From: Raillietiella orientalis
Lineage: Eukaryota
Direction of reading: 5' to 3'
DNA length: 64,000 nt
Assembly (NCBI GenBank): GCA_036172245.1
Contig: JAYWIR010000024.1
Location: 1,984,001-2,048,000, forward strand
The position numbers were made by a program, and so were the translations under genes. Shown piece by piece: positions 16,441-56,001 of the stretch (within the stretch, counting starts at the first letter, position 1; the number at the start of each line of letters is the position of its first letter). The notes beneath the pieces were generated by a model. The model ran no database searches, had not been told where the DNA came from, and saw only the letters and a list, made by a program, of their open reading frames with translations.

Positions 16441-17100
16441 CCCGGCTACGCCGGGACGTTTATTAAAACATTTCAACGGTCAGTACATTACGTGGTATAA
16501 GGCCCCACTAACGGCCAACATTTCGCCGGACCTGCCGGGACGCTGGTACGCAGACCAGCGTGACTCTCCTCAGCAGTGGAAGGGGAAGGGGGGAAAAACA
16601 AAAAGAAAAATAAACCAGTAACCAAAAAAAAAAGAGTTTTTGGAGGGAAGGGAAGGGATCACTGCCCACTGGGAGGAGGGTCCATCCTTAGCAGGATACC
16701 CTCGAGGTCCTCCTTCAAGCTATCCAGCTGGGGCCATCCAGTAGCTCTCCGCAGGAAGCGAACAGCATATGGGATGACGTCCGTTACGGTGGAATCTTCA
16801 TCTTCGGCTTCACTCCAGGCCGCCACAATACCACGGATGCAGCAAAGTGCTGCGAGGGCTGCGGCTGGCTTCAGGGAGTCCCGCACGAAGAGAAGACTGT
16901 AAACATTCCTGGGGTTGCCACGAACCGGTATCCCGAGGGCCGTTCCAAGACGATCCCAAAGAATCCGGAGGGCAGGGCAGTCAACTAGGAGGTGAGGGGA
17001 AAGGACGAAGGCTCCCTGAATGGTCACTCGTTTTTTCAAGCAGCTGCTTGGCGTGCCATCGAAGATTTCCGCTGAAGACGATGCTCTTTGCCCTTTTCTT
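16441..17100 (-). mobile_element. L1/Tx1-like LINE 3' fragment (copy 1)
   Basis: PHLLVDCPALRILW..LG zinc-finger-like C-terminus, ALCCIRGIVAAWSEAE motif, pyrimidine-rich 3' UTR and the family terminal hairpin. Confidence 0.8.
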
Positions 17101-17829: not shown

Positions 17830-18957
17830 TTTTTCCCTCTGGAGGAGTGTTCCTTGATACTCTGGAGAGGCGACCCCCTGAGGGAGGTGTTAACTAGCTC
17901 CATGGCACGCAGTAAAGGGGTTCCCTCCCTGAGGGGAGAAAGGGACGGCTCCATTTTCGCGACCGGAGGGGAACCCCTAAAGACTCCTCCTAGAAGGACC
18001 TCGGAAGGTCAACTTCCAAATTCCAGCCACTCAAAGAGGGCATCCAGGGGTTTCTAGCTTTTACCAGTGCCGCACCTGGAAACCTACTGGCCAGCCAGCC
18101 AGTAGGCTTCAAGGGTGGGTGAGTAGCGGAAGAACTCGAAACCCACGACCATTTCTCCGCGCTGATTCATTTTCAGCTGGAATTCGATCCCATTGCACGG
18201 AGATCGCAGCCACACGGCCGCACCAACGCGGCCCGGAGGAACGCTTTGGGCCTCTCCGAAGGATCAGAGAGAAACGGACGGACAGCGGTCAGTGCGCGGC
18301 GGGGAAGCGGAGGCAAGCAGACTGGCAGCTGTGACCTCGTTGGACCCCAGGGAGGGAGAGGAAGGAACGCTTGAACTGTACCAGATGTGGAGAAAGAAAG
18401 TCTCTCCCGCACCTGCTTCTGGATTGTGTTGATTTCCGGTCCCTGTAGGAACGCTTTGCCACGACCCTAGGGACTGCCGATGGCAGCCCCAGAGATGCTT
18501 GGAAACTCCTCTTCTTACGCGACGCTGCCAGCCGCATTCCCCAGCAGCTCTTTGCTGCCTACTCAGGATTGAGGTTTCCTGGAGCACCGCCGAGAGAGGC
18601 AAGAGCGACGAGGGATGCCATCCGTTATGCGGCCCGCTACTTGAGAATACAACGAGATGGCCCCATCCGGGGGGAGCATGCATCCTGAACTTGACGGCAT
18701 CCTCGTATGGATGCAGAGAATGCCCCAAAGCAAACAGAGATCCTTTCCCCCACCCCCACCCCCCATCCAGAGTTTCTTTTATGTATTTTGATTTAATTTT
18801 TTTTTGTTTCCCTTCCCTCTGAGGTAGATCCGATTCTCGCCAGTCTGCGCACCGGTTTCTCGGTAGGTTCTTCGATCAGTGGACGTGGCAGGGGCAGCCG
18901 TCCTACAGCCCCTTTGTGCGTTTCTTGATTGCAAGAAACGCTCCGGCGCAACCGGGT
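17830..18957 (+). mobile_element. L1/Tx1-like LINE, internally deleted (copy 2)
   Basis: Shared 5' block (homologous to 28235-28350, 43400-43700 and 48455-48700) joined to a CTRCGE..LPHLLLDC C-terminus and the family 3' UTR. Confidence 0.75.
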
Positions 18958-20089
18958 AAGGAGGCAGATCCGGCCGAGTGGTTTCGCCTACACGACGGTG
19001 CCGGACGTGCTCCCAAGGAACCTCGTTCAGCGGAAGGTTCATACGTTTCCAGGGAAAAAGAGTGAGGGAGGGGGAGGGGGAACTCACCTTTTTCGAGCTT
19101 CTTCGGCTTCCTGATGTGGTGCAGCGCGCCTGGAGAGTTTGCTGACAGTGGTCCATCAGAAGGTCGTGCGGGACTCCTGGACTCTGTCGAAGACGGTTTG
19201 CTTCCTCAGGTAGCCGGTTGACCAATCCTTTTCTTTCCACTTCTCCCGGTCTACCCTTCTCCCCTCTCTCACTCCACTGCGTCGTTGCTGTTGTCGTCGC
19301 CTAGTTCGCGAGGACACTTACCCGTCCCAGGGAGCGACCGAAGAGGTCCCGATTCGTTTCCCGGTCAACACAGTCGCGACGGGAGCAGGGATTTAGGGCG
19401 GGGTCGTTGTCACGAAACCCCTGCAGGAGTGAGTCAATTACCTAAAGGCTCATGCTGCCGGGAGAAACTCACCGGTACAAGTCATCTGCCCTACCGAAGA
19501 ACCGTAGGACTCCGTACTCCCGGATGTTCCCATCTATTCCACGTTAATGGCGATACTCCTCCTGAGTGTGTTCCTGCCCTTCCCTCCCCGAGGTCTCCTT
19601 GAGGTACCTACAGCCCCGGATGCGGCGCACAGATCCTCCGAAGCCCGTGTGTGGTGGAAGGGGTGCGTGTGGAAAGGGAACACATGCCATCCCTCACGTG
19701 ATTGGCGAACCGTGTTGAATCTCGCGACCGTGTTGACCGGAAACGAATCTCTGCCTGGGATGTTCCTGAACTCCACCTTCCCTCGACTCCTCACTTATTG
19801 TTGTCTCCCGTCGCTTTTTCCCTCGTTGAGACCAAGGAGAGAGCCGGCGAACCTGAGGAGGAGGACCGCCGTGGAGATGGCGCAAGGCGCTTGAGGTTGG
19901 GAGGCGCTGCTGCGCAGCCATGCGGAGGTGTCTGGTCGGTCATCCTGACACCGAGGAGGGCGTGGCTGCGATCTGGAGACTAATTCTCGGGATGGGCGGT
20001 GCCGTTCCTTCCACGTGCCAGCTCCCGGTCCGCTGCGCAGGTCCGGAGACTTCGTTGCTGCAAGGCAGCCGCCGCAGTATCGGTCAGGG

Positions 20090-26384: not shown

Positions 26385-28930
26385 TTTTTTACCCGGAGAA
26401 GCCGAGGCTTTTATTATCAAAATTTTACAAGAAACTTAATAATAAAATATGGTCTTTTTGTAATTTTTTTTCAGGCAGAACACATGGTTCTGACTGTCTT
26501 GGCGCACTTGTTCTTACCGACCCGCAGGCCGGTGAGGTCGTCTACACGGGCGAAGGGGGCTGGAAAACCAGAAAAAAAAGAACAAAAAACGAAAACACAA
26601 GAGGGAACAAAGTTTTATGGGAAGGGGAGGGAAGGCAAGGGATCACAGTATGCCGCGAGAAGGCCTCTGCATCCGGTTTCGGATGCGGGCAAGTGCCGGT
26701 AGAATTGTCCTTAACCGGCGCCATCGGGAGGCCTTCTCCATGGAGAGGACTGCCCAATGAATGGCATTCCGACTGCTGCGGTCTCTCCTTGACGCAGTGC
26801 ACTTCTCCAGGATTCCGCGTGTGCAGCAGAGAACTGCAACACGCGCGGCTGCTGGCAGGGCGTCCCGCATCATGAGGCGACGGAAAATGTCTTTTGGGTC
26901 GCCCACCGGAATGTTCACAATCAGCGAGAGGCGATCCCACATGAGGCAGAGGGCGACACATTAGATGAGGAGGTGGGGGAAAGTTTCCCGTTCCCTACAC
27001 TATGCACAACGGGCATCCATACTTCCGAGTGTTCAGTGAGAGAGGCGTGCTCTGCAAAGGAGTCCCCACTGCAGCACTAGCAGCGCTGTCTCCTGCCAAT
27101 CCAAAGGGAGGGTGCCGTTGTCCCAATGCGTTGGAGCCACTTCTCCTCCTCCGGAGGTATGCCGAGCAGCTTGCCCCAGCTCACAAGTCCATTATACAGG
27201 ACACTCGGGGTTGCAGCGTCCGCTAATTCCCGAGATGTCCACGCCTTCACGAGTTTTTTCCTGCCTCTGATGATGCAGGACACTTCCTGAGATGCCTCCT
27301 GTTGAGTGTCCCTAGCTTTGATTAGGGAGGGAAGCACGGGGGCAAGGGTGGTAGAGGAAGCCCACAGAAGTTTCTGGGGTTGGTAACGATCTCCCGCAGG
27401 GGCTGGCCAGCGTACCTGCCTTTACGAAGGCAGGAGAAGTCCACATCGCTGGAGCCGTTGATCCTTGCCCACGCGGAAACTGACTCCTGAAGCCAGGTAG
27501 TCCAGTTCTCGGGGACGCAAGAGATCCAAGAATTATCCCTCATCAGGGCATTTACGTCGCGCAGTTGAAAACCACAATGGTTTAGGCTGCATTCGTTAGC
27601 AACAAGGATTGAGGTCAATCCATTGCAGCTGGTTGCCCTATTGGCAAGGAGATGTGTCGGGATGTACCATGGCGCAGTCCAGTATCTCGCCAGAAGGGCG
27701 AGCTTGCGTATTTGGAGCTGACGCTCCATGAGCTCCATCGCCAGGAGACCGAGTCCACCGTCCCTGCGTGGAGCGCACAAGTCTTTATGCCGGACGCGGG
27801 ACCTCTGATCACCCCACAGGGCTTTTCTTAGGAGGCCCCGTGTACTTGTCTTGATCTGGGATGGGGCGGGGCAAGCAAAAAGTACAGGGCGAAAGAAGGG
27901 GGCCGCAAAAGCGTTCCACACAGCGACCCGTTCCTGCAAGTAAAACTTGCCGTCACGGAACGGGCCGATCGCCAACTCCAACTTTTGGAGACCATCGGAT
28001 CAGGCTTCTGCGGCGCAGAAGTCCCCCAACGGAGGTCAAGGTACTTAAAGCACCTGCCCGTGGGGATCCCCAAGCGGATCCAGTCTGGCCGTGCAGCTCA
28101 CGCCGAGCCGATGTGGATGATCGACGACTTCGCCATGTTCACCTCCAGGCCCGTCCCGTGGTGTAGCAACTCGAAGAACCCCTCAAGAGTGGAAGCTGGG
28201 GCGGACCCGGGGAGCAGCAGCAGAAGATCGTCAGATTGGAAGTTGACCCTCCGGGGTCCTTCAAGGAATTAAGGAGCCGTTCTCCTCCGGTTGGGAAAAT
28301 GGAGCCGCCCTGTATCGCATTCCATGGAGCTGGTTGATACCCCCGCTAGAGTTTGCCTCTCCAGAGTGTTAAGAAGAGCGCTGCTCCCTTGGGGAGCGAC
28401 GCTTCAGAGAAAATCGGGAAGTGTCCCTCCGGGGTTCTCTTCAAAGGAGCACCAGCAAAGAGCGGTTCCCTTGCGGGTTCCCTCCGGAGAAGAAATTCCA
28501 GGAGCGGACCCTTTCCGGATTCCTTTCGGAGTAGAAACGAGAGTGACCCCCACAAACCGAAGGGTCCATCCGGAGAGAATAAGGAAGGAGGTTCCCTTCG
28601 GAACAACCAGGGCGAGAGTTCCCTACCAAGAGTAAGAGGAACGGACTCCTTCTTCTGGAGTCCTTTCTGGGCCTATAGGGTGGTACCCCCTATGACTTGA
28701 AGAGTGGTACACCCTCTCGGGTGGCATGGACGGTGCAAAAGAAGAGCTTCGTGGGCCCTTCCTACGGGGGCGAACGGTTCTTCAGCACTTGAGGACGCTT
28801 TCCGGATTCATTGGGCGTCCCTTCGGGGTCATACCCTAACTTTAAGAGCTGCACGCCTCCTCAGGTGGCGTGGACGATGCTAAAGAAGAGCCTCGCGGAC
28901 CCTCTCTACGAAGGATAGCAGTTCCTAGTA
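26385..28930 (-). mobile_element. L1/Tx1-like LINE, longest copy (copy 3): 5' block fused directly to RT domain 5, then thumb, zinc finger and 3' UTR
   Basis: DDLLLLL...GTGLEVNMAKSSII, FKYL, LCAPRRDGGLGLL and the family C-terminus; frameshifted; short A6 tail at 26385-26390. Confidence 0.88.
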
Positions 28931-33900: not shown

Positions 33901-36179
33901 ATTGCCGCACTGGCAGCTCCAGCGTCGTCGCTTCCAGGTACGAAGCTCGATAGACCGCATCGGGACCTCCCACCGGCCTGGGCCACGGGGACGCGTGAAA
34001 GAGCTTCCAGAGGGTTGAAGGTCCCTTCTCGCTGACCTCCCCATCCGAATCGGCGGGCCCTGGCGGCAGCACTGAAGGGGTTACACGTAGGCGGACCCGG
34101 CGGAGAGAATCGTGGCTCCGCAGCCTCACTGTTTCGTTCCGTTGGCTTCCCCGGAGATTTGCGGGGGAGGCGGGTTTCGCCCGGGCGCGAAGGCGGGAAA
34201 AGAACCCCCCAGTGCTGGATCCTCGCCCTCCTCCGGCCGCCGTCACTCCCTGATCTCCCGACAGGAGTTCCAGCAGAGGAAGGCGAGGGGACGGGAAACC
34301 CCTCCCCAGGGATCCACCATTCCTCTGCGGGACGGGCCCAGGGAGACTTCCGGAAGTGGAAGGTTTAGGGAGGGCGTGACCCGGGCAACCGCGGCTGTGG
34401 GACCTGGGACGTCGCTCCGGAGGAACACGTCGAGACAACTCCGAAGACAAAGGAGAGGCGCGCGCAATAGCCCACCCCCGTCCGCGCCCGCGAGGAGGGC
34501 TTGCCCTAGAGACCCCGCTACCAGGACATCGAAGCCCGTTTCCTCCGAGTCACCTGGGTCCACGGTTCCAGAGGTCCTCCTTCACCTGGCGTCCTTGAGC
34601 GCCCTGGAGGAACAGTAGCCGTCCCTGACTCCGCCTGCCCCTCCGGGAACTCGGTGGCGTGCCTCGAAGACTCAACAGGCGGGAAGGTGATCGGAGGAAA
34701 CAGGAGTCTCTAGGAGCGCTCGTTCTCGGGATGCTGGGAGCGAGGTTTTCGGGCGCCGAGGGAGGGAAGGGGCACTTGGCGCAGCCGGGACGCGAAGCAG
34801 ATGCAGCGAGGGGAGGCGCCACTCGTGAGTAGCCCTTCCGACTCCCATGACCTCGGAGACTTCCGCGTTCTCTTCTGCCCCCGCCTCGCGCTGGGACGCA
34901 TCTCATGTTGCGCTTAGTGCCTTCCGGCTGAGTTTCGGAGCGCGTGCGCCGGATTTTCACCCAAATCCGTGACAGCCAGCCCCCCCCCCTCCCCTCCAGC
35001 GCTTCGGACTGCTCGCATTCTCTTCCGCTCCTCTCCGGCGTCTCTGCCCCTCGGCGCGTCTGTGCTAAAAAGCGCCGATGCAGGGAAGAGTTTCATCCAA
35101 TCCTGTCCGCCTGCTCCTATCCTCTTCGACAGGCCCTGTGGTCACGAAGGTTTCCCGCTGCTGACGACGGTGCAATGCCAATCGCTTCGCCCAAAGACTC
35201 AATCCCAGATGGCGGAAATCCCGAAAGATCGAAATCCCGAAAACGTGTGCAATTCATCATCTGCTGAAGAAGTTTCCATTTATGGAGTGTTGGAAACGAC
35301 ACGACAATGAACAAATTATATATATAAAGAAACAATGCTGAGAGTTTTTTTTATAAAAAAAAATAAAAAAATAGGAAACAAAAAAAACAAAAAAAGAAAA
35401 TTCGATATGTGGAAAGCAGAAGGATGGAAAGTGGCGTCCTCGAATCAGCGCGTCAATGGTCTTCATTCAACTCTGAGGCCAGGTCAAGACCAGGGCCAAT
35501 GGGGTGGTGGTGCTGCTTTCCCCAGGTCCGACAAGCGGTGGGGTGAATTTATTGAACAATGACGACAAAGGTACAATTACAACAATGTCAACAATTCGAA
35601 CTCGTTCGGTCACATCCCATCTGTGGATTCTCAGTTTCACACACGTTGTCCTTTTGTATGTCACCATTAGGATTGTTTCCTTTGGATTGGGTCACTGGAG
35701 GCTGGAGGGCAGTTCACTCGCTCGGGCCACGTCCACTATCTTTTGCAAGATGTAGCGGTACGTCCAGGCTGGTATCTTGCCACACAGTTCCTGATCCCTA
35801 TCTCTCGTTTCATCAGTCCCTATAATATGTTGAGGGATGGAGCTGTAGCCCCGTATTCCTCATCTTTGCCCTTCTTACCACGAAGCTCGTGATGGGGAGG
35901 GTGATGGTGAGACGAAGCATGGGTTTTAGTGCGGAACGTTCCTGTTCCCATTAAGCATCCCCACCAAAATCTGCACTCCCGTGGTCCTTCGCAGGCCGAT
36001 CACCGCCTTCAGCGTGCTCCAGTCCTGGCGCAGCGTCGGGCAAGTGAGGACAGGAAGCTGCCACACGTCCTCGCGGAGTTCTATTCGATGTTGCCAGTCC
36101 AGTGTCTTGTCCTGCTCCCACTCAGGATGTATCCATGGTTAAACAGGACGAGGTCACCCTGAGTACCTGGTGGTTTGGC

Positions 36180-36900
36180 ACCCGGTTCCTCTGGGGCGTC
36201 TATTTATATGAAAAATAAATACACAGGTCAGTGGCAGGACGCTTGGTCCTGCCACTTTATGAATATACGAAAAAGAACTTGCCGGCAACCGGCACGCAGG
36301 ACGGCAGGGTTCGCTTCGGTAGCAGAGGGGAGGAGAGGAGATAACAAAAAAGAAAATGAAACAAAAAAATATATACAAAAAGCTTGGGAGGGTTCGGGAA
36401 GGGATTACTATGTGCTGGAGAGCGTCCTCTGCACCCTATGCAGGATGCCGGCAAGTTCCTGTTTAAAGACTCCCAGATGGGGCCATCTTGACTCTGTCCT
36501 CATGAAAAGGACATCCAAAAGATGACGTCCCTGTCGTTCTGCCCTTCTCTGGCGTTGCTCCATGCATCCACGGTCCCGCAGCATAGGCAGCAAAGTGTTG
36601 CCAAGGATGCAGCCGGCGTGAGGAGTCGCTCAGGAAGAGGAGCTATAAAGCGTCTGTGGGGTTGCTCTCGGGGATCCGCAGGGATGCGGAAAAGCATTTC
36701 CACAAGGGATGGAGGGCCACACAATCCACCAGCAGGTGCGAAAGGGACTCTCTTTCGCTGCACCTGCTGCCTCTGGGGCTTGCACTTCCTCGGGTCCAAT
36801 GGTGTCGGCGGGTGTTGCACTGGAGGCCTTCCAATGCAACAGAAGGATCGCCGACTCTTGGGTGATGACGTTGGACATCGCTTAGCCCTCTTTTCCCCAG
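36180..36900 (-). mobile_element. L1/Tx1-like LINE 3' fragment (copy 4)
   Basis: ESLSHLLVDCVAL, TLCC, DAWSNAREG, ELAGILHRVQR and the family 3' UTR. Confidence 0.82.
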
Positions 36901-38291: not shown

Positions 38292-38989
38292 GATGCAAAT
38301 TCATACAAGTAATGAAAAATATCCATTAATTCATTAGGAAAAGAAGATCCCATATCATTATTGCAAAGGTACCCATCACCAATTCTACATTATGTCTCCC
38401 TCAGTTGAACTGTTGACACAAGACCCTCAAATCAGCCCTATTGTGTAGCTATGGCCTATCACTAAGTGTGAATGAATTCTCGATGTAGTTTTTTGTTTTT
38501 TTCAAATAAAATGTAATTGCCTTGATATTTTATATCTTCCTAATTCCTTAGGTCAGTAAATAGATAATTTTTTTTTCCGAACTGCTATCCTGACACCATA
38601 ATATTCTTTCATTTTGAATATTAATCTAATGCATTTTATAGATTCATGCTATTCTCCATACTTAGTTTACAGTTTGAACTCAATTTGATATTAAACGCCA
38701 GAGACTTCATTTTGCAGAGATTATGGCCAATTAGGTTACCAATCAAACGTGCTTTGTAAGCCTTGCAAACAGGCGAGGAAGCCTCCAGAATGCAAGTTTA
38801 CAGCACTTGTGACCCTAGCATCACCAGGCGTGAGACGATCGCACAATTTGTGATACGGAGTTCTATTTGTGATGCGGACGACCAGCCAGCAATCCAAGGA
38901 AGGAGACGTCGGTGCAAAGGTGCTGACCGCCATCACTGGAGCTGTCGGATCCCTCCGTGCTCTGGGTGTCCCGCGGATGGATGTTTGAA

Positions 38990-40390
38990 CCCGGTTGCGC
39001 CGGGACCTTTATTTTGAAACAGGAACAAAATAAACTACAAGGAGGAGGGGAAGAAGGGTATGTCCTCAGAAGCACGGAACGCCAAAAAAGGAAAAGAAGT
39101 TCGCCCGAGATAACCACCGGCGCGCAAGCCGGCTCCTCAAAACTAGGAAGCGGAAGGAAGGGACAATAAATAAATAAAAAAACACGGGAGGATGGGGTCT
39201 CTGATACGTAACATTCCTTAATTTTTAGAAGCGACTGCGGATGGTGGCGATCACCTTGGCAATTTCTTGCAGATGAGGTCACCTTGCTGCTGCCCTCATG
39301 ACGGCTGCTGCCATGCTGGTGGCCTCTCTTCACTGCGAACTTGATTCCTGCACATGGAATACTGTCACCATGGTGCGGATGCAACCGACTGTTGCAATCA
39401 CAGCGCCCTTCTTCAGCCCGCTTTCTGTAAAGAAGCGTCAGAGCAAGTTCGTAGCTGTGGTCTGCGGTCTACGGAGTGATAAAGAGACTCTGCCGCAAGT
39501 CCTCCAGCGCACTGCAGTCCGACAGCAGGTGAGGAAGCGATTCCATCGCCCCGCACCTCGAACAGTCCGGGGAGGAGGCAACTTTCTCCCGGAAACACGG
39601 TGCCTGCGCTGATTAAATTGGAATCCCTAGTGCAGAAACAGCAGAACATCCTGTTTCCAGCGCAGTGGAAACAGGGAGGTGTCCACTCAAAGGGAAGAGA
39701 CCGCTTTTCTTCGGGGGACACACCAAGCGGGTCGCTGCACCGAAGGAGTCCCTTTGCCCGAAAACGAGGAGTAGCGGCGTCCACCAACTCGCTCGTCTTG
39801 CAGCCGTTCAGAAGTATTTCGACTCCTTCAATGCTGCAGGAAAACTGCCACCCCGCCGGTTGGCTGCTGTCATTGCTTGCCCTGAGGGCAGTCAGCGCTG
39901 CAGCAAGGGGTGTGACGGCTATCCAAGTTCATTACGTCCAATTATGCAAGAGATCTTTCCGCGGTTTGCGTAGGAGACCCTACAGCGGTCGCAGTCCCTC
40001 TAGGCGCACTTCCAAAGTGGCAGCCCAGGAACCCAGAGCCTCCTGCCGTCAGGCATTCCAGTTTATGGGTCGGCAGGAGATCCACGGATAGGCTAACAGT
40101 AATGGGGACAGATGCCTCAGATGATAGCAGAATCCAGTCCTCCGGTGTAGGTTGAGCGGCAGTCCCACCAACGCATCGCTGGAGGATGTGGTGTGCCGAA
40201 GCACACCAATGAGAGGACCACAGTTTCCCACACAGGAAGAGAAGTCGCAACTGCAACTGCAGTCCGATCTTGTCGATGACCAGACCGGAGTCCTGGTGCG
40301 GCGCCATGAATTCTTTCAATCGGATCCGAGACCTTGCAGTGCCCCATAAGACTTTGAGTAGGAGGTGCTGCGCCCGGATATTTACCGAAT
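38990..40390 (-). mobile_element. Diverged L1/Tx1-like LINE 3' part (copy 5)
   Basis: KVLWGTARSRIRLKEFMAPHQDSGL aligns with KALWGDQRSRVRHKDLCAPRRDGGLG of copy 3; CSRCGAMESLPHLLSDC zinc finger; AATAAA plus terminal hairpin. Confidence 0.8.
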
Positions 40391-42600: not shown

Positions 42601-43810
42601 TGGCTTCCTCGGTCGCATTCTGCAGCGGACTCCGGTCCTTCCAGGAAGACGTTGTGGGTCTTCGAGGAATCGCGCTTTCCCATTCGGTGAGTATCCGACG
42701 TTTTCGGCTCGCATGCCAGGAGGAGGTGGAAGGGTTGGAGGACCCCCTCCTTTCCTTTCCAACGTGTTTGTCCTTGGGAATGTTCGATTTTCTCCCGACG
42801 TTACACTGGCCTGTCGGATCTCAAGGATAATGAGGTCCTGCTATTGCGGATGTCGCTTCAGAGGCGGAGCAGACAACCGATCCTCGGCAGTTGCTCTCCT
42901 TGCTGCTTTCAGCGCGGCTGCTGAATATTCAGAAGGGCGGGCGACTTCCGGAGTGACCGTCTTCTCCGCCCTGCAGCACGAGATCCAGTTTGTGCACTGA
43001 ATCCGTTCCCAGGATGGTGAGGCTGGAGGCCACTAACTCCAGGTGCTCTTTTCAAATGGATTCCGATGACCTAAACAGCGGCCACAAGCGCGAATTCCAA
43101 GGAGGAAGGCTGTGGAAAAAAGTTTCCCAGCAACCGATGATGCGCTCCGTCTGCTGGTCGCATCCGAGATCTGCCGAAGTCGAAGTCGAGGCGTTTGAAG
43201 GGGATGGAGCTTCAGCCGATCTGGCCTTAATCTCGACAAGGCGGGTGTCGATCGCTCGCTCCTCTCGCAGATGTTTCTCGCGTTTCCAAGGAGGTCGATG
43301 CGGCGCCATGCCGATGCTATCCAAAAACTCCCGTGTGTCCGTGAAGAGGGCATGAGTCAGAGGTCACGTGGTCACGGTCTTCGCTCGTGGCACCACCAAG
43401 CGTCGCGGGTTCGAATGCTCGGAAAAATCGACGCCGAGAGATGGGAGGTGCGTCGTGGGTTCGAGTTCTTCCTGCACAATGATGCTGGTTGGCCTCTATT
43501 CATTCGAGTGCGGCACCAGTAGCAGTGCAAACCGGATGGCCCCGATGAGTGGCCGGAATTGGGAATCGACCTTCCAGGAAACAGAATCAAGGAGTGCCTA
43601 TTTCCCTTCCAATCGTGCAAAGGAGCGGAAGCCCCTTCGGGGGCACCCTCCGTCTGGTACCATGGAGTAGGTGTGGTACCTCCCCAGAGTGCAGAGAAGT
43701 GTGCCTGCTCCCTTCGGGGAAGCGCCCTTCTGAGAAATTTCGGAAGCGTCCCTTCGGGATTCTCTTCAGAGGAGGAAAGAGGGAGCGGTTCCCTTGCGGG
43801 TTCCCTCCTG
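42600..43810 (-). mobile_element. LINE 5' block plus probable endonuclease/linker remnant
   Basis: 43400-43810 is homologous to the shared block of copies 2, 3 and 7; the rest is only weakly recognisable. Confidence 0.55.
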
Positions 43811-43817
43811 AGTTGTC

Positions 43818-45470
43818 ACCCGGTCGCACAAGGGCGCTTATTGATGAAAATAAACTCACAACTTTCGTGGCACGAGGCCCTACTACGGCCAACTTAACAT
43901 TGGACCTGCCGGGTCACCGGTACGCAGACCGACGGGGGTCGCCTCGGTAGCGGAGGGGAAGGGGAGAAAGCGAAAATGAAAAATAAAAATAAAAATAAAC
44001 AAAACCATTTTGGAGGGGCAGTAAGGGGATCACTGCCGGCTGGACGGAGTCTGCATCCGTTCCAGGATGGTTCAGCAAGGTCCGTTCAAATAGATTCCAG
44101 TGGGGTCATCTGGCCGCCATCCGCAGAAAGTGAACTGAGGACTGAACGGCGTCCTTCCCGTTTCTTCCTCCGTCGGCTTCGCTCCATGCCGCCACAATCC
44201 CGCGGATGCAGAAAAGTGTGCTGGGGCTGCGGCTGGCTGCAGGGCGTCCCGCACGAAGAACAGATGGGGGAAGTGCCGACCGGGATCCAGAGAATCGTCC
44301 CAAAACGTTCTCATAGGTGCTGGAAGGCAACATACTCCACTAGCAGGTGCAGGAGGGATTCCCGTTCCCACAGTCCGGGCTCACCCTCCCCAGCATCCAG
44401 TGGTGTAGGCTCGCGTTTCAGGGGAAACACCAGTGCAACAACAACGGGGCTGACTCCCGCCACTTCAAGGGGTGGATGCTCGTGTCCTTCAGCAATGTTT
44501 GTAAGTGTAAATACACATGAATTTTCATATTCACGTGCACAATGTGCCGATGCATAGCATAATGGTTTAAGCATGATACTAAGCTGTAATTTATGGTGAT
44601 AAATTCTGATGGTTTATGTAATTGATATTCCTAATTTTTTTTTTACTGGAAAAGCACTACAATTCATGTGTAAGTGTACCATATTTTTGACTTTTTTTTT
44701 TTGAAAAATACTCCTCCATAGCTAGTATCGAACAATTAGCAATTTTTTTCTTCAGCAGCTTAAATGCACCCTTAATACATTGTCTATTCTAGTTCTCTGC
44801 AAAAGAATTGCTTAAACATCTCAAAAATGTCTTACAACTTTTCTGACATTGAAGTCCCTTCAGCACTGGGGGGCCATTCCAGTTCTTCCGATTAGAATGC
44901 TGAGCAGTTCGACCCGGAGCTGTAATCCTCATGGGAGGACACTTGGGGTCGCTGCGTCCGCCAGCTGTCCCGTGGTTCAACCGCTCATCAGATTCTTCTT
45001 GCCTGCAATCTCGCAGGAAACTTTTCACCGCTGCCTTTGGCTGCTGCCTAGTGACCTCCTTAGAAAGGGCAGCGTTGCAGCTAGGGGGCTCGTCTCCGCC
45101 CACGTGCTCCTGCCAGGATACTCCGGGACATTCCGGAGAGAGCAGAGGGCGTGGTTGCCGAGTTCCACCTCTCGGTTCCCTCCGGAGAAGAATTCCTGCT
45201 AGCGAATCCTTTCCGGGTTACCTTCGGAGAAGAAAACCCGGAAAGACCGACCCCTCCGGGGGTCTCTCCGGAGAGAATAAGGAAGAAGATTCCTTCGAGG
45301 ATGTCTTCTCCACCCCAGACGTGAGAAAAACGGACTCCAAGCCTTTCTTGGATTCATAGGGCAGTCTCCTCCGGGGGTATCCCCTATCCTGAAGAATTTA
45401 CACGCACCTTCGGGTGGCGTGAAACAGCGTCAAAAAGCTGCGTGAGCCGCCAAGCGTGCGACGGCTCTTG
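43818..45470 (-). mobile_element. L1/Tx1-like LINE, internally deleted (copy 6), interrupted by a 362-bp AT-rich insert
   Basis: ESLLHLLVEYVAF, TLFCIRGIVAAWSEA and the family 3' UTR; 5' block at about 45160-45470. Confidence 0.8.
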
Positions 45471-47540
45471 AGGTACTCGGCGAACCAAAAACAAAGGAAG
45501 GAGCGGAGTCTGGCCGCTCGCATCCCCTCAGCTCCAGGGTGGACGAAGCGGGCGCCGAAGACGCACAGAGCTCTTCGAGGGCTCGGATCTCGTCCGGAAA
45601 CGGCTGCTCCCTGGACACGCGAGACGGGAAGGAGCGCGCGGCAACGAGTGGCTACGAGGAACGAGGTGGTGGTTGCCTAGTTCGCTCGTTAGAACCTCCG
45701 TCCGCCACATTTCCGGGAAGGCGCGACCGTATTAAGTGCGAGAAGCCGCAACGGAAGAGGAAACTCGTCCGCAAGACTCACCGAGGAAGAAGTCGAGCAC
45801 GGTTTTGGTGTTCCGCATCTCAGTCTACGGCAACGATCGCACTTCATTTAGGCGGTATTTGATGCAGTGTAGGATGCTGCATGTCTCGCATTTCGGTCGG
45901 TGAAGATCGACGAAGATGCTACGGAATCACCGAGGATTGTCCGTCAATCGCCTTGGGATGTGCATGAGCAGGTGCGCCCGCTGCTGAGACGGCGGAAGTA
46001 AAGTGACCTGAATACTTGGATCCACTCAGTCACTTGGCTCGTCCGTATCATCGCCAGCTCAACCACCCCACTTTTGAGATGCCCACTTCGAAAGGGAAAC
46101 TCCAAGTTGGTTGGCGCGCCTCTTTTCCGAGTCAGCTCATCGATTTTCCCAGGATGGCGCAGGAACAAAATGGGAGAGGCCTGTCATCGTCGCGTGTCTC
46201 GATCACTCGTCCGGAGCCTTGCTCGACATCGCCTCCCCTGGGGATCGAAGAAGAGAGCGAGGATCCGTGCAAGGGTGACCCCGTCCGCCCCAACCCTCTA
46301 GGGAGGTCTTCGTCGCAAGTTTCGCCGTCGGCGGCAACAAGCGGCCAAGTAGGAAGGGGGAGGGGGGGGGAGGACACAACTTGTACACCGTTTCTTCAGC
46401 AGGCGGACCAGCGGTGGGGTCGGATGTCCTGGGATCCCTGAAGCATCCCTAAGTTGAAATCACGAATCGGGGGCAATATCAACTGCTCTTCAGTCCGAGC
46501 GTGGCATCCCCCTAAGGGTCGTTTGGATTAAAGCAACCTTGTCGTAGCATCTACGTGACTTCCCAACCTAAAGTGCCTAGGGGCGATTCCTTTGTGGCTA
46601 CTCCGACAACAGCTAGGTGAGGAGAGAGGATTCCGGAACTCCAGAGCAAAGGAGAGAAGCCTTGCGAGTTTCTCGCAACCAGTGGGATGAGCAGATTGAA
46701 ATAGGTCGCCTTCGCTTCATTGGAAAACAAGAAGGATGGAGGGGGGGGGTCATGCTCTGGGAAAATCGGTACGGAATGCTGAAGACGTCTCGAATTTGCG
46801 AGGGTGAGGCGGGACTATATCTTGGTTTCTGGCTGGCCGTGATTCCATGGCAACGATCACTGTTGATCTTTAAACACCGCTGGAACGTTTGCTGCTTTTG
46901 TTGGGCTCGATTGGCATTTTGGAGTGGGGCACCACAATCAACTCTGGAGAGGCGTAAGACTGCGGCTGTCATGTCAACAGCCCGCCTCACTGCGCGAAGC
47001 GGGAAACCCGCCGTTTTGGGATGCTGCGATGTGAACGGGTACTCCAGGCTGGACCGTGAAGCGCGGACAGCGACTTTTACAGCGGAGCGGTGCGCTGCGA
47101 GATGTCTGTCACGCCCTGCTCGAGAAGATGCGAAACTCCCACACAGAGGTCCCGATTTTCCGTCTGTGCAGTCAACGGAGAGCTTCCTGGGTCTCCTGCT
47201 GAGGGATGGACCTCTCTGCTCGGAGGTATCCGTGCGGAAGTAGTCACGACTGCCCTCCCGGGACCACACTCGCCCCAGGCGGGCGGTTGTGTCGCTCGGG
47301 ACGTCCGCGGCACGAGCGCGCCTCCAAGGTCGAACGGTCTCCACTCCCACGCGTGCGAACCAAGACCGCCTGAGGCCGAACGGCTAAGTCGGATGCAGAT
47401 GAAAATGGGAGATGAGGGATAAGGAACCTGCTAGGAAGGATCTTTCCAGAGAAGAGGGAGTTCGTGGAGGCGAGAATCCCGCGAAAGCACCAGGGCTCCC
47501 AGTCTCGTCGGCCAGGATGATAGTCAAGAGCGTGCGGCGT

Positions 47541-49979
47541 GGCACTGGCTGACGACCGGTCACGCCGGGGCGTTCATTTATGAAATAAACACGCGTCTGT
47601 GGCAGGACGTTTGATCCTGCCACGTTAGTTATAACCACGAGAAGGAACCTGCAGGGAACTGGCACGCAGGCCAGCGGGGTTCGCCCCGGAAGCATAGGGG
47701 AAGGGGAGACAAACAAAAAGAAAAAAAGGAGGGAGGGCGGGTTCGAGAAGGGATCACTGTCCGCTGGAGGCCGTCCTCTGCATCCTTGTAAGGATGCCAG
47801 CAAGTTCCTGTTTTATGGTTCTCAGATGGGACCATCTTGATGCCGTCCTCATGAAGGGGACAGTTAAAAAGATGGCTTCCTTGTCGTGTTGGCCTCCTCT
47901 GGCGTTGCTCCATGCGGCCACGGTCCCGCTGCGTGGGCAGCAAAGTGCTGCTAGGGATGCGGCCGGCGTGAGGGCGTCGCTCAGGAAAAGGCGCTTTCAA
48001 ACATCTCTGACGTTGCTGCCAGGGGTTCCGAGGGTGACGGTAAAGCGTCCCCGAAGGGGCCGGAGGGCAATACAGTTCACTAGGAGGTGCGGGAAGGATT
48101 CCTCCTCCCCGCACGTTGCACAGTTTGGGTTCACACACACCCGCGTCCACAGATGCCGGTGGGCGTTGCACGGGAGGCCCCAGTGCAGCGGCATCAATGC
48201 CGACTCCTGCCACTTTGAGGGGAGGGTGCGGGTGTTCATGAGCACCGGGAGCCACCGCAGGTCTTCCTCTGGAATACCCAGCTGCAAAAGTCCACGAAGT
48301 CGAGCACTCGGGGTCGCAGCGTGGGTGAGCTGGTCCGTCGCCCACTCGCCCAGTCCTCTTCTCCTTCCGGAGATTTCCGCAGTAACCTCTCCCATTTTTC
48401 CGCGAGGTTCCTGTCCATGTGTTGCCCAAGGGAGGGCAGCGCGGCGGCGAGGGAGGTGCGGCACCGGTGGAAGTCAGAAGCCGAATGTACCGTTGACTGG
48501 CCGAGATTCGAAGTTGATCCTCCGCGGTCCCTGTCAAGAATCAAGGAGTCGGCTCCCTTTGGGGCTTTTTCTCAGGTTGTGCAAACGGAGCCTTCCCGTT
48601 CTTCTAGGGAGGGTATTCTCCATAGCGTTCCATGGAGCCGATGGATCGATACCTCTCCAGAGTGTGAAGAAGTGCGCTGCTCCCTTCGGGAGCGATCCCT
48701 CAGAGAGAATGGGAAGCATCTCTTCGGGGTTCTCGTCAGAGGAGGAAACAAGAAGCCGATCCTTTCCGGGAAGTCCCTCCGGGGAGAACAAGGGAGAGGT
48801 TTCCTTCGAGGTTCCCTTCGGAGGCAGCCGGGATGGAGGATTTCTTCCCACCCAAGCGCTACAGGAGCGGACTCCTTCCTTCGGAGTCCTTCCTAGATTC
48901 ATAAGGTGATCCCCTCCCAGAATACACTCCTAACTTGTAGAGTTAACACGAAACCGCGGGTGGCGTGGAGCAGCATCAAAGAATTTCGTGATCCCCCAGG
49001 CGAACGGTTCTCCAGTACCCCTTGACAATTAAAAAAAAAAAAAAACATTTGGAAGGGAAGCAGCGAAACAGAAGAACCCAAAAAGGGATTTCCATCATCC
49101 TAGGCTCAAGATGCGGTGGGTCTCATCTACCTCTCCTGCCCCAGTGCTGCCCTCCTTGAAAGACTCAAAGGACAGCGACCTTCCAGCAAGGTGAGAGGTG
49201 TCCTGCTGCATCGAAGGCAGGAAGAAACTTCTGGGGGCATGGACAACTCGGGAAGTCACGGACGCTGCGACCCCGAGTGTGCCACCCCAAGGACTTGTAC
49301 GCTGGGAAGAGATGCTCGACATCCCTCCGGAGGAGGTGAAGTGGTCCCCAGCTTGCTGAAACCGTGGCGCCCTCCCCTTCAAGTGGCAGGAGTCGTCGTT
49401 GCTGGTGGTGCGTGGAGAAATCTCGTGCAAAGCGCGCCTTCACCACCGGACACGAGGGAGCGGGGACTCGGTGCGCAGGCGCGCGAGGAAGGAGACCCTC
49501 CTGCACCTGCTGTTGGACTGTGCTGCCCTCCGACCTCTTTGGCTCGCCTCTTAACGACCCTAGAAACCCCGGTGCACGACCCCAGGGACACTTTGAAACG
49601 CCTCCTCGTGAGTGATGCCGCACTGCCGCCGGCCGCATCCCTCTCAGTCCTCTGCTGTTTCCGCGAGATCACGGAGGCCTGCAACGCCAGGAGAAGAGGT
49701 CGAACTGGGCGCGGATCTTCCTGAAGAGCTCCTCGGCATGGCCTCACCTGGGCGCTACACGAACGGAACTTGCCAGCGTCCTGAGGAGGATGCGGAGAAC
49801 ACCTGGCAGCGTACCATGATCCTTACCTCGATCCCCTCCCCGTGTGTAATTTCCCCTCCTCTGGTTTGTTTGTTTTGTTTGTTTGTTTTGTTTTTGTTTC
49901 CTTTTCCCCCACGCTGACGAAGCGTGTCCTCGCCGATCTGCGCACCGGCCTTTGGCAGGTTCGTCGCACGTGGTAGAAC
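47541..49979. repeat. Left arm of 2.44-kb inverted repeat (LINE copy 7 on -, copy 8 on +)
   Basis: Reverse complement of 53564-56001. Identical translated ORFs (371, 302, 202, 191, 157 and 155 aa) occur in both arms; the only difference I noticed is A15 vs A14. Confidence 0.97.
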
Positions 49980-52900
49980 AACATCAATGTATTTCGATGA
50001 CTTTATGTAATAAATGCCCCTGCACGACCGATTGAGAATCATTCTGGGCCGATAGCAAAGGTATCCCCGTGAGTTCGCATCTGGTCTTTAAAAAAAAAAA
50101 AAAAAAATGGATGAAAAGAGGGATGCTGCTGACAACCACACCTCGTTTGGAGATGCTGGAAACACAAATAGGGCTTCTTCCTCACAGCCCTGAGTAAAAC
50201 CGCAGGCTGCAAGAGGTGCATTGCACACTGTCGTGCAGCCGTTATCGTCAAGTGCCTTCGAGTTGCTCAAGTCACTCAATGCGGCTTCCTGGCCGTTCCC
50301 AATTTTCCCCGCTTCAAGGTTCGGGCTGCTTCCCGCTCTTCCCGGAACGCCACCGCCAGAGAGAGAGGTCTGGCGTTGTGTTGGCCTCACTTCCGCGAGT
50401 CGGGTCGGTTCGATGGTTCATACCCGTCAGGAGAGGCGAGAGCCCTTCCAGGCTGCTCCGGTCCGGGACGGATGGTTTCCGGGAAGGCGCGCGCTCGGGA
50501 AGAGCGCGTTGTGGCGGCGCTTTCCGGTTGGCCAATTCCCCGCAAGCCAGCGGCGACGAACAGAGCGATTTCACAAAAATCATCGGCGGCTTCGGATCGA
50601 AGGGAAGGTCATTCCTGAGGGATCAGATGAGATATGAGATTGCCCGAGGCTGAGGCGCTTAGGGAAAAAGGCAGAAAAATCTTATCGACGGTTGTGTTTT
50701 CCGTGCGCCTGGTGATCTCATCTGGGGAATGGGAGAGGGAAGCGGGTCAAGCAAATGTTCCTGATGAGAGGTTCCTCTCCTCCTCCTCCCTCAACAATCT
50801 TTGAGACCGCTGCGCCGATTCTTTCCGTTTTAACAGACTCCCTCGAACAGCGTTCCCCCTGCATTCGTCGGGTGAGCACATTTCATGTTTCGCGTTGGAA
50901 ACGCGTCCTGGAAAAAGATGTCCCTCGTATCATTCCGGGAGCATGGAAGAAAATTGGCGCATGCATACGACACACGTGACGTGCCGTGGCCTCCTGCACA
51001 TGAATTGGCTGTGGACCGATTGCTGCATCTTTCGACCGACGGGTCTGGGACCACGCAACTTTCCGGCCTGCCCAAATGGCCTGCCCAAGAAGGACTTGGG
51101 AGGATGAAGATGAAGATGCGAGGGAACCGTCGTCAAAGCAGGTGAGAACTGGAAATCTCGATGGATCAGCGCGACCTTGGAGCAGCAGAGAGGCGAAGGA
51201 AGGTGCTGAAACCCAGACCTCTCGCACTTGGACGAGCCATTTCCCCTTTTGCCCTTCCAGAGATCACGTGGCAGCGGGCACCGCGTCGCCAACGTGCAGC
51301 GAGAGCTGACTGCGGAAGGGGCGCAGCTTGGACGGTATCTGGGTCGCGTCCTCTGCCATCTCTGGACCAATGGCAGGGGAACCTCTTCCGCGAGATCAGG
51401 AGAGTTGACTTGACCCTTTACCAGCCGAGCCCATCAGTCCAGCACACTTCGGAGATGTGCATGTGACACACCTTGCCAGCAAATGACCGCGACAGCTTCG
51501 GAGCTCATCGCAGTCGATCATGATGGACCTCAAAGAGCCAGCAGCGAAGGCTCTCACTGAGACCAGAGCTCCAGAGGCCGAGATGAAGAGGGGACGTCTA
51601 CTGTGTCTCTCTTCTTGCGCCTTCCGGGATCTCCTGACCACCTGCCACGGCGAAGGGAAACGTTCGGGCGTCTTCCTGGAGGAGGTTCCGAGCCAGGGAC
51701 TGCCGTCTTCGGCCATGAAGGCGTCGCGATGCTGGCTGCGAAAAAGAGCGGAGTGCCGGACGCGACTTTCGGATGCGCCCAGCGGTGCCCCGTCGCACAA
51801 CTCCCGCCACCCGCGCGAACGGCCTTCTCCTCTCCTCCTAGCAGCACCAGAAGGGGAGAGACTTAGCCTGGAGGCATGCTGGAGGTGGAAGTCGAGGAAA
51901 CAGGTGGATCCCTTCCCCACTTTCCGATGGTAAAGAAGTCTGGGACCCGGTGGGGTCCAGCTTTTAAGACAAGATGCCTGTTCAGCATCCTCTGTCAGAA
52001 AGGCCGTGCCACTCCGCGCCGCTCGAAAAGGATGAAGGTTGAAGAGATAAGGGAAGAGGGAAGGACAGGAACTACCCATTTGCAGGCCACATAGCTGCAG
52101 CAGAAGACTTCCCGGACGAGCAAAATGAGGCACACCCTGAAATGCTTGGTCCCGACCAGAGCAAATGCTCTGCCTTCGGGAATGGAGCTGCTATTTCTTG
52201 GAAATACCTCGTGGGGGAAAGGGAGGAGATCTCCGGAAGGATGTGCAGGTGCAAATTCGGATGGCTCTTTGGATGACCAAGGTGCACCTGACCACGACGA
52301 GATCAAAGAACACCCTGGAGGAGTCTCTCAGCATCCTTGGTGCCAGCTATTCGCAAGAGCTGGATGCAGGGGCGAAAGAAGAATCAAACCTTCTAGCAGT
52401 CGCTTTGTCCCAAGCATTTCTCCCGTCCTCCTCCTCATCTTCCCTTCTCCCTCCTCCTCTTTCCTTCCTTTTCTCCATCTCCTCCTTCTCTCTTCCTCTT
52501 CCTCCTCCTCATCCCGGTCTTCCATCATCCTTGCTGTCCAGCTTGGCACTCCCTTGTTGAACAGAATCCCGATCAGGGAGGGCGGCGTCTTCCAAGCCGT
52601 TTCCCACACCCAGGAGAATCCATGCAACTTTCGAAACAATTCCTGGTGCGCGGCTGGCCACTGTCTCCGCCTCATCCCCTACGCGCAGTCGTCATCAAGG
52701 GAAGGCCACCCGCTTGAAAACCGCGCGTTGTGGAGAGATGCTGGGTGCAGCGCGTTGCTCAGTACAGCCCGCTCCGCATGCCACCCGCAGGCGTCACCAT
52801 CCAGGGTGGACCAAGTTCAACAGACGGAGCGACCCGGGCGGTCCCGACGAGAACCTTCAGAAGGAAAGGACCATCGCCCTCGGAGCTCGCTGTCCCTCCG

Positions 52901-53563: not shown

Positions 53564-56001
53564 GTTCTACCACGTGCGACGAACCTGCCAAAGGCCGGTG
53601 CGCAGATCGGCGAGGACACGCTTCGTCAGCGTGGGGGAAAAGGAAACAAAAACAAAACAAACAAACAAAACAAACAAACCAGAGGAGGGGAAATTACACA
53701 CGGGGAGGGGATCGAGGTAAGGATCATGGTACGCTGCCAGGTGTTCTCCGCATCCTCCTCAGGACGCTGGCAAGTTCCGTTCGTGTAGCGCCCAGGTGAG
53801 GCCATGCCGAGGAGCTCTTCAGGAAGATCCGCGCCCAGTTCGACCTCTTCTCCTGGCGTTGCAGGCCTCCGTGATCTCGCGGAAACAGCAGAGGACTGAG
53901 AGGGATGCGGCCGGCGGCAGTGCGGCATCACTCACGAGGAGGCGTTTCAAAGTGTCCCTGGGGTCGTGCACCGGGGTTTCTAGGGTCGTTAAGAGGCGAG
54001 CCAAAGAGGTCGGAGGGCAGCACAGTCCAACAGCAGGTGCAGGAGGGTCTCCTTCCTCGCGCGCCTGCGCACCGAGTCCCCGCTCCCTCGTGTCCGGTGG
54101 TGAAGGCGCGCTTTGCACGAGATTTCTCCACGCACCACCAGCAACGACGACTCCTGCCACTTGAAGGGGAGGGCGCCACGGTTTCAGCAAGCTGGGGACC
54201 ACTTCACCTCCTCCGGAGGGATGTCGAGCATCTCTTCCCAGCGTACAAGTCCTTGGGGTGGCACACTCGGGGTCGCAGCGTCCGTGACTTCCCGAGTTGT
54301 CCATGCCCCCAGAAGTTTCTTCCTGCCTTCGATGCAGCAGGACACCTCTCACCTTGCTGGAAGGTCGCTGTCCTTTGAGTCTTTCAAGGAGGGCAGCACT
54401 GGGGCAGGAGAGGTAGATGAGACCCACCGCATCTTGAGCCTAGGATGATGGAAATCCCTTTTTGGGTTCTTCTGTTTCGCTGCTTCCCTTCCAAATGTTT
54501 TTTTTTTTTTTAATTGTCAAGGGGTACTGGAGAACCGTTCGCCTGGGGGATCACGAAATTCTTTGATGCTGCTCCACGCCACCCGCGGTTTCGTGTTAAC
54601 TCTACAAGTTAGGAGTGTATTCTGGGAGGGGATCACCTTATGAATCTAGGAAGGACTCCGAAGGAAGGAGTCCGCTCCTGTAGCGCTTGGGTGGGAAGAA
54701 ATCCTCCATCCCGGCTGCCTCCGAAGGGAACCTCGAAGGAAACCTCTCCCTTGTTCTCCCCGGAGGGACTTCCCGGAAAGGATCGGCTTCTTGTTTCCTC
54801 CTCTGACGAGAACCCCGAAGAGATGCTTCCCATTCTCTCTGAGGGATCGCTCCCGAAGGGAGCAGCGCACTTCTTCACACTCTGGAGAGGTATCGATCCA
54901 TCGGCTCCATGGAACGCTATGGAGAATACCCTCCCTAGAAGAACGGGAAGGCTCCGTTTGCACAACCTGAGAAAAAGCCCCAAAGGGAGCCGACTCCTTG
55001 ATTCTTGACAGGGACCGCGGAGGATCAACTTCGAATCTCGGCCAGTCAACGGTACATTCGGCTTCTGACTTCCACCGGTGCCGCACCTCCCTCGCCGCCG
55101 CGCTGCCCTCCCTTGGGCAACACATGGACAGGAACCTCGCGGAAAAATGGGAGAGGTTACTGCGGAAATCTCCGGAAGGAGAAGAGGACTGGGCGAGTGG
55201 GCGACGGACCAGCTCACCCACGCTGCGACCCCGAGTGCTCGACTTCGTGGACTTTTGCAGCTGGGTATTCCAGAGGAAGACCTGCGGTGGCTCCCGGTGC
55301 TCATGAACACCCGCACCCTCCCCTCAAAGTGGCAGGAGTCGGCATTGATGCCGCTGCACTGGGGCCTCCCGTGCAACGCCCACCGGCATCTGTGGACGCG
55401 GGTGTGTGTGAACCCAAACTGTGCAACGTGCGGGGAGGAGGAATCCTTCCCGCACCTCCTAGTGAACTGTATTGCCCTCCGGCCCCTTCGGGGACGCTTT
55501 ACCGTCACCCTCGGAACCCCTGGCAGCAACGTCAGAGATGTTTGAAAGCGCCTTTTCCTGAGCGACGCCCTCACGCCGGCCGCATCCCTAGCAGCACTTT
55601 GCTGCCCACGCAGCGGGACCGTGGCCGCATGGAGCAACGCCAGAGGAGGCCAACACGACAAGGAAGCCATCTTTTTAACTGTCCCCTTCATGAGGACGGC
55701 ATCAAGATGGTCCCATCTGAGAACCATAAAACAGGAACTTGCTGGCATCCTTACAAGGATGCAGAGGACGGCCTCCAGCGGACAGTGATCCCTTCTCGAA
55801 CCCGCCCTCCCTCCTTTTTTTCTTTTTGTTTGTCTCCCCTTCCCCTATGCTTCCGGGGCGAACCCCGCTGGCCTGCGTGCCAGTTCCCTGCAGGTTCCTT
55901 CTCGTGGTTATAACTAACGTGGCAGGATCAAACGTCCTGCCACAGACGCGTGTTTATTTCATAAATGAACGCCCCGGCGTGACCGGTCGTCAGCCAGTGC
56001 C
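53564..56001. repeat. Right arm of 2.44-kb inverted repeat (LINE copy 9 on -, copy 10 on +)
   Basis: As for the left arm; contains CATCGEEESFPHLLVNC zinc finger at about 55420-55470. Confidence 0.97.

Follow-up and report, generated by a model that had tools for sequence, protein, structure and literature searches.

Compensatory changes point to a hairpin rather than a pseudoknot in the 3′ untranslated region of a LINE-like repeat family of Raillietiella orientalis

We analysed a stretch of 64,000 nt from Raillietiella orientalis (contig JAYWIR010000024.1, positions 1,984,001 to 2,048,000; referred to below as the window), in which degraded copies of a repeat family resembling long interspersed nuclear elements (LINEs) share a conserved motif in their 3′ untranslated region (UTR). 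A preliminary description of this DNA had proposed that the motif forms an H-type pseudoknot. Comparison of eight independent copies supports a 6-bp hairpin that compensatory changes have maintained in lineages of the family that have diverged; the pseudoknot is not supported, and modelling suggests that it would be sterically strained. The explanation we favour, though tentatively, is that the feature is a cis-acting stem-loop belonging to an L1-like LINE of the stringent type.

A profile made from an alignment of the motif blocks and searched across the window gave ten occurrences (all E ≤ 3.3e-7; the next match had E 0.64), eight of which are independent. The copies at 47.6 kb and 53.6 kb are not, because they lie inside a 99.877% identical inverted duplication (47535–49979 and 56007–53564, 2445 nt, spacer ~3.6 kb), where they are the twins of the copies at 55.8 kb and 49.9 kb, respectively. 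This duplication, which doubles two LINE 3′ ends, may be either recent and palindromic or an artefact of the assembly. The hairpins of the independent copies are at 55867–55884 (+) in the copy that we call c10, 36288–36305 (−) in c36, 16542–16559 (−) in c1, 43916–43933 (−) in c6, 49932–49949 (+) in c8, 18839–18856 (+) in c2, 39116–39133 (−) in c5 and 26516–26533 (−) in c26, and on the − strand they start at the higher coordinate. Those of the twins are at 47658–47675 (−, twin of c10) and at about 53594–53611 (−, twin of c8). At 55867–55894 the DNA reads GCTGG CCTGC GTG CCAGT TCCCT GCAGG, which confirms the motif first described there, and a homologous block is found at each of the five other places listed with it; c36 and c26 were not among them. 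The closest pairs of copies are 64–73% identical over their common stretches, and the copies differ by 27–36% overall.

Side by side, the copies covary at a sixth pair of the stem (C–G in c10, c36, c5 and c26; U–A in c1, c6, c8 and c2), and the hairpin therefore has 6 bp closing a CUGCGY hexaloop, one pair more than the 5-bp stem 1 originally drawn. The UGCG core of the loop is invariant in all eight copies. Pair 3 is U–A in two copies (55.8 kb and 16.5 kb) and C–G in six, which bears out the swap reported earlier, and several other changes keep G–U pairs, as had also been noted. The hairpin of c10 is GCUGGC-CUGCGU-GCCAGU, with six pairs, and that of c1 is a perfect 6 bp which, on minimum free energy (MFE) folding, can grow to 8 bp (ACGCUGGU/ACCAGCGU). 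The stem of c6 has two wobble pairs, while those of c26 (ACCGGC-CUGCGG-GUCGGU) and of c5, the most divergent copy (loop UUGCGC), are intact. The stem mismatches mentioned earlier for some copies occur in three, with U×C at pair 5 of c36, A×C at pair 5 of c8 and A×C at pair 4 of c2.

Perfect 5+5 arrangements of the shape first described are frequent, with 233 instances across both strands of the window, among which c10, c1 and c6 are the only family members (3 of the 8 copies). Pairing within a single copy is therefore not special, and the case rests on comparing copies. On a MAFFT alignment of the eight copies (A3), 45 of the 48 base-pair cells of the hairpin were paired (93.8%, compared to 86.2 ± 2.3 in 500 shuffles) and its covariation score was 0.518, compared to 0.334 ± 0.060; neither value was reached by any of the shuffles. 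RNAalifold, applied to the anchored alignment, predicted this hairpin as the sole structure. G–U wobbles make up 7 of the 48 cells; on the antisense strand these cells would be mismatched, which points to the sense (RNA) strand as the one that folds.

A tree inferred from 650 nt of upstream sequence, leaving out the hairpin, is nearly star-like, with terminal branches of 0.2–0.73 per site (median 0.4). Its only strongly supported clade, c8 + c26 (97/99), has members that differ at pair 6, and the sister copies c10 and c36 (82/82) differ at pair 3. The positions of the pair-6 states on the tree therefore force at least two changes of state and, with supported clades split by pair 6 or by pair 3, several independent double changes are needed. 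If phylogeny is ignored, the exact probability of the association is 1/70 for pair 6 and 1/28 for pair 3 (hand calculation). The hairpin deviates from its consensus by ~0.13 per site (hand count), compared to the median of 0.4 for the terminal branches of the flank. The A16 change shared by c10 and c1 is compensated within the hairpin and not in a competing CCRG/CCGG helix. Helices in which either arm of the stem pairs with a third CCGG were rejected, because they either have no compensation in c10 and c1 or do not covary.

The hairpin lies among other conserved blocks. In order, the 3′ UTR has a polypyrimidine tract whose length varies between copies, a conserved block of ~25 nt, the hairpin, the sequence GGCAGGUY (which starts 4–5 nt downstream of the hairpin, or 10 nt in c5), a second GGCAGG-like block and a terminal block. 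The flanks had been described as hard to align; that does not hold for the ~25 nt upstream, for GGCAGGTYC downstream or for the last ~40 nt, all of which are conserved too. The hairpin of c10 begins ~80 nt past the stop codon, and across the copies the hairpin starts 103–146 nt upstream of the 3′ end of the element. Between the motif and the terminal block, c10 (55918–55942, +) and c36 (36234–36258, −) have a perfect 9-bp hairpin, GUGGCAGGA-N7-UCCUGCCAC, of which the other copies keep only the 5′ half; this half is the second GGCAGG-like block.

The terminal block reads AAUAAA-CGY-CCCGG-CGYRR-CCGGG-U, and homology ends after it in all eight copies. No poly(A) or A-rich tail follows it in any of the eight, a run of six A being seen in c26 only. 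The block is at 55953–55988 (+) in c10, as an AATAAA-like signal and then a short CCGG/CCGG hairpin, and at 47554–47589 (−) in the twin of c10. In c1 it is AATAAA-CGU-CCCGG-CGUAG-CCGGG-U (16439–16478, −), and the remaining blocks are at 38989–39027 (−) in c5, 43816–43855 (−) in c6, 18919–18958 (+) in c2, 36179–36216 (−) in c36, 49995–50034 (+) in c8 and 26390–26428 (−) in c26. The terminal hairpin, CCCGG-CGYRR-CCGGG-U, begins 2–5 nt after AATAAA and shows wobble-type variation only, with no double changes. It is a better candidate than the internal motif for the site at which reverse transcription starts. A degenerate pattern of the terminal hairpin matched 92 metagenome loci and 2 viral loci; these are chance matches, none being related beyond the pattern by blastn and none having the motif in its context. 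One sequencing run gave a single 195-nt contig, at 47541–47652, which covers none of the motifs.

Upstream of each copy, translations end at the TGA in CAGTGATCC and a CxxC...H...C motif is visible. In c10 this degraded C-terminal coding region spans 55069–55785 (+), with one in-frame stop (55543–55545), and its open reading frame (ORF) ends at the TGA at 55786–55788. The copies seem to be 5′-truncated to about 1 kb. The Pfam domain zf-RVT was the top match in four of six fragments, below threshold in each (13.9–17.7 bits, compared to a cut-off of 27.5). In the ESM Atlas, zf-RVT was found in 27 of 30 named neighbours (score 0.96), a weak result, with recognition at 2094 and so below 2300. Neither a reverse transcriptase (RT) nor an endonuclease domain was found in the 299 ORFs scanned (at E ≤ 0.01, 142 of at least 112 aa and 150 of the 405 of 62–111 aa; in a further domain scan, seven long ORFs). 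We regard the host element as LINE-like with an L1-type C-terminal domain, and L1/Tx1 as no more than a candidate clade label.

What might such a hairpin do? It looks like an ordinary LINE 3′ UTR stem-loop, and stringent LINEs as a rule use conserved 3′ UTR stem-loops to label their own RNA as a template for reverse transcription. We infer that it would be a cis-acting signal on the RNA of the element. Most likely, it would serve the element's own ORF2 protein as one module of a two-part recognition site, or would serve ribonucleoprotein assembly in the same way. The second module would be the AAUAAA-proximal terminal hairpin, at which reverse transcription would begin, by analogy with stringent-type LINEs.

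The closest known parallels are the 3′ tail stem-loops of stringent-type LINEs. In UnaL2 of eel and ZfL2-1/2 of zebrafish, a 3′ stem-loop is described as bound by a region of ORF2 and needed for retrotransposition (Hayashi 2014, PMC4176376), and ORF2-bound stem-loops in LINE 3′ tails are given there as defining the stringent type (PMC4176376). As in these L2-clade elements, the family studied here has a short conserved 3′ UTR hairpin with a conserved loop and a variable, compensating stem, and no poly(A) dependence. However, their hairpins are described in the terminal tail, whereas the present one lies 103–146 nt short of the end, which is occupied by another hairpin; the C-terminal domain here is zf-RVT/CCHC-like, the clade and the loop sequence are different, and there is no partner among short interspersed nuclear elements (SINEs) in the window. 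Thus, of the features of stringent LINEs, the family has a compensating stem with a conserved loop and a defined 3′ end without poly(A), but not a hairpin located in the terminal tail. The poly(A) tail that marks the relaxed type, and is typical of vertebrate L1, is absent.

Within the L1 clade, the monocot stringent LINEs of the LINE1-1_ZM group are described as having conserved 3′ hairpins with compensatory changes (Ohshima 2012, PMC3472496). The resemblance extends to a conserved 3′-end sequence folding into a hairpin, a compensatory stem and conserved loop bases (PMC3472496). L1-1_CR of Chlamydomonas has a tail common to a LINE and a SINE (PMC3472496); it ends in poly(A), as do most plant L1-clade LINEs (PMC3472496). 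The conserved bases differ, being a UCU loop and CGAG in the LINE1-1_ZM group and CUGCGY and GGCAGGU here. The elements treated in that account are from plants or algae, unlike the present ones, which have no poly(A) and lie in an animal-like window, with a gene encoding an ANC1 homology domain (AHD) nearby. The stem-loops of Ohshima 2012 (PMC3472496) also weaken the novelty first suggested for an L1-clade element.

Two further systems share some traits with the family. R2 is described as having a pseudoknotted 3′ UTR RNA that the element's protein binds to prime reverse transcription, and like R2 the family has a structured non-LTR 3′ UTR. R2, however, belongs to another clade, has a restriction-like endonuclease and folds a much larger part of its UTR, and a pseudoknot is unsupported here. 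The L1 3′ UTRs of lizard, frog and fish are reported to have a C- or T-rich polypyrimidine tract, a terminal AATAAA and a poly(A) tail (PMC5381506). The polypyrimidine tract and the terminal AATAAA recur here, but in our family a conserved hairpin, and not an A tail, comes after AATAAA, whereas those elements have poly(A) and no conserved hairpin is mentioned in the account of their UTRs.

Several observations weigh against the favoured explanation. The independent copies are just eight in number and all are degraded, and three have a stem mismatch. In six of the eight copies the motif folds no more stably than its dinucleotide shuffles (z-scores of the eight, 0.14, −0.65, −2.05, 0.24, 0.16, 0.21, 1.29 and −3.49), and the hairpin is within the MFE fold of only three. 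The shuffle tool has its own caveat, in that related sequences without structure can beat every shuffle in 5–25% of trials. The hairpin is not terminal (103–146 nt off), and another conserved hairpin is found at the terminus. Within the window there is neither a SINE partner with a shared tail nor any extra tail-only copy. The L1-like assignment comes only from the sub-threshold zf-RVT-like C-terminal domain, and three protein searches (with a single fragment and with alignment A1, against longer proteins, and by exhaustive phmmer) gave no homologue. The lone phmmer match, to a 507-aa tandem-repeat protein, was judged spurious.

The hairpin would be useful for annotating the repeat family and for finding SINE partners, and would carry greater weight should the element turn out to be an animal member of the L1 clade. 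The account cited above describes stringent elements of this clade in plants and one green alga (PMC3472496), and no animal case was listed by our literature searches on LINE 3′ structures. A bolder version, to which we give a slim chance, is that this is an animal L1-clade LINE that kept or regained stringent recognition, with a bipartite signal in place of poly(A) and with the internal loop docking on GCAGG as a strained mini-pseudoknot or a switch. If true, a stringent animal L1-clade element would be a live model of how L1 template recognition relaxed.

Could the conserved blocks be read as linear sequence instead? They may be sites for host or element proteins acting in stability, export or 3′-end processing, with the hairpin incidental to CCGG palindromes and GGCAGG a repeated motif, not a pairing partner. 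The second GGCAGG-like block (CGUGGCAGGR) found 25–35 nt further downstream in most copies is consistent with this, as are the three CCGG-like tetramers, any two of which could pair, the invariance of the UGCG core, including its unpaired G, and the folding energies given above for six of the eight copies. For a purely linear motif, however, we would not expect double-sided changes at two pairs, in four or more lineage events, with 45 of 48 cells still paired, and we regard this explanation as unlikely.

In the pseudoknot first proposed, the loop (YCUGC or CUGC) would pair with GCAGG further downstream while stem 1 is also formed, giving a compact H-type fold for RT recognition or resistance to exonuclease. 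This was the main source of the earlier interest in the motif and is the part of it that is unsupported; we consider it decidedly improbable. The proposed 3′ arm of stem 2, within the conserved GGCAGGUY, is GCAGG in c10 (55890–55894, +), c1 (16531–16535, −), c6 (43905–43909, −) and c8 (49955–49959, +), GUAGG in c2 (18863–18867, +), GCAAG in c36 (36278–36282, −; a C×A mismatch in stem 2) and GCGAA in c5 (39100–39104, −). Downstream of the c26 hairpin GCAGG is unrecognisable, with ACAAG at best; c26 is 3′-complete, with both hairpin and terminal block, and so contradicts the statement that every 3′-complete copy has this arm.

Some of the evidence does fit a pseudoknot. Complementarity in the crossing order a-b-a′-b′ is kept in 37 of 40 cells of stem 1 and 33 of 35 of stem 2, although this is complementarity and not proof of folding. 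Of the 28 cells of the 4-bp core CUGC/GCAG, 27 are paired, and among the 2189 possible 4-bp helices in the anchored alignment this core comes second; GGCAGGUY is conserved as strongly as the hairpin; a linker of 5–6 nt could span the shallow groove of 5–6 bp (21.8–25.7 Å); and in c5 CUGC/GCAG has become UUGC/GCGA, a double change plus a wobble. Yet the covariation claimed for both stems was found in stem 1 only. Stem 2 alone scored 0.214, compared to 0.225 in shuffles (reached by 356 of 500), and the whole 5+5 model 0.304, compared to 0.257 ± 0.037 (reached by 52 of 500). After column shuffling, 14.7% of alignments have some 4-bp helix as good as CUGC/GCAG. Changes in the 3′ arm of stem 2 are mostly uncompensated, as in c36 and c26. 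The sole double change is that of c5, where the linker is 11 nt, compared to 5–6 nt elsewhere, and where the alignment was anchored according to the pairing first proposed, which counts against its support for a pseudoknot.

The geometry is also unfavourable. The covarying pair 6 of the hairpin (C–G in four copies and U–A in four) uses the base with which the proposed stem 2 would begin, and with the 6-bp hairpin formed, loop 1 of the pseudoknot has 0 nt. In an idealised A-form model, the phosphate–phosphate distance across the deep groove of 4–5 bp is 10.4–12.7 Å, compared to 5.7 Å for neighbouring nucleotides. The classical geometry therefore could not close unless the covarying pair opens. 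Our literature searches found no explicit minimal loop-1 length, and the limit applied here is that of the model. The loop base G11 is invariant yet unpaired in the pseudoknot model. UGCG fits the UNCG tetraloop pattern, and a tetraloop of this type would occupy the loop bases; c26 has the canonical closure, C(UGCG)G. Both the loop and GGCAGGUY are nearly invariant, and there is no covariation evidence for a contact between them. We conclude that a contact of the loop with GCAG would be at most a weak or transient tertiary one, and not an established pseudoknot.

The earlier proposal of a conserved structured 3′ UTR element is thus supported as regards the hairpin in a LINE-like family, and unsupported as regards the H-type pseudoknot. 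Rfam covariance models gave no matches over the whole window at gathering thresholds, in keeping with the earlier remark that the motif does not fit the hepatitis delta virus, hammerhead, twister or pistol ribozymes. In permissive mode, applied to three UTRs, nothing recurred between copies, and the best score was 17.2 bits, compared to a threshold of 100.

A two-state switch, which we consider very unlikely, would have the 6-bp hairpin alternate with a 7-bp helix, GGYCUGC/GCAGGUY, formed with the top of stem 1 and the loop. Since this helix and the top of the hairpin are mutually exclusive, the arrangement would amount to a switch, not a knot. Pairing is high, at 46 of 49 cells (0.939; for the best 7-bp helix of each of 300 column shuffles, the 99th percentile is 0.913), but the alignment was partly fitted for this helix, its covariation was reached by 174 of 500 row shuffles, and two or three of its seven pairs are wobbles. 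The G-to-A changes that break the hairpin at pair 5 of c8 and pair 4 of c2 turn into A–U pairs in the 7-bp helix, although two such events are too few to count for a switch. In c10 the two folds differ little in energy (−8.9 and −8.6 kcal/mol) and in c6 and c8 the 7-bp fold is better, whereas the hairpin has the advantage in c1 and c5 and the two are near-equal in c2 (−2.0 compared to −2.3 kcal/mol for the hairpin).

It is similarly very unlikely that the motif has no function and is the slowly decaying remnant of a recent ancestor, its double changes arising from transition bias or from CpG decay of CCGG (to CTGG or CCAG): the copies are dead, with ORFs riddled by stops, and both changes at pair 3 are CpG-type transitions, but the CpG observed/expected ratio of 0.83–0.97 in the repeat cluster indicates no strong CpG decay and therefore weakens it as the source of the pair-3 swap, the changes at pair 6 are outside a CpG context on the 5′ side (Y then C), and the hairpin is 93.8% paired despite copy divergence of 27–36% and terminal branches of 0.2–0.73 per site. 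A 3′ splice site (polypyrimidine tract and then CAG/G), an IRE1-type loop, a Smaug recognition element loop, the histone stem-loop and an iron-responsive element stem-loop were each rejected as misfits to their consensus sequences, no tool test of these being made.

The copies lie in a 45-kb island (12000–57000) with 48–62% G+C and degraded repeat fragments in both orientations; the flanks have 31–47% G+C. CpG is not depleted in the island (observed/expected 0.83–0.97). Near its left edge is a 304-aa open frame (10621–11535, +), probably a host-gene exon adjoining the repeat cluster; the 61 residues at its C-terminal end match the AHD of AF9/ENL-type proteins (E 1.2e-18). A separate repeat of ~135 nt, unrelated to the 3′ UTR motif, is found at 28356–28490, 43677–43812, 48650–48785, 54757–54892 and 45174–45297, with 77–80% identity between copies.

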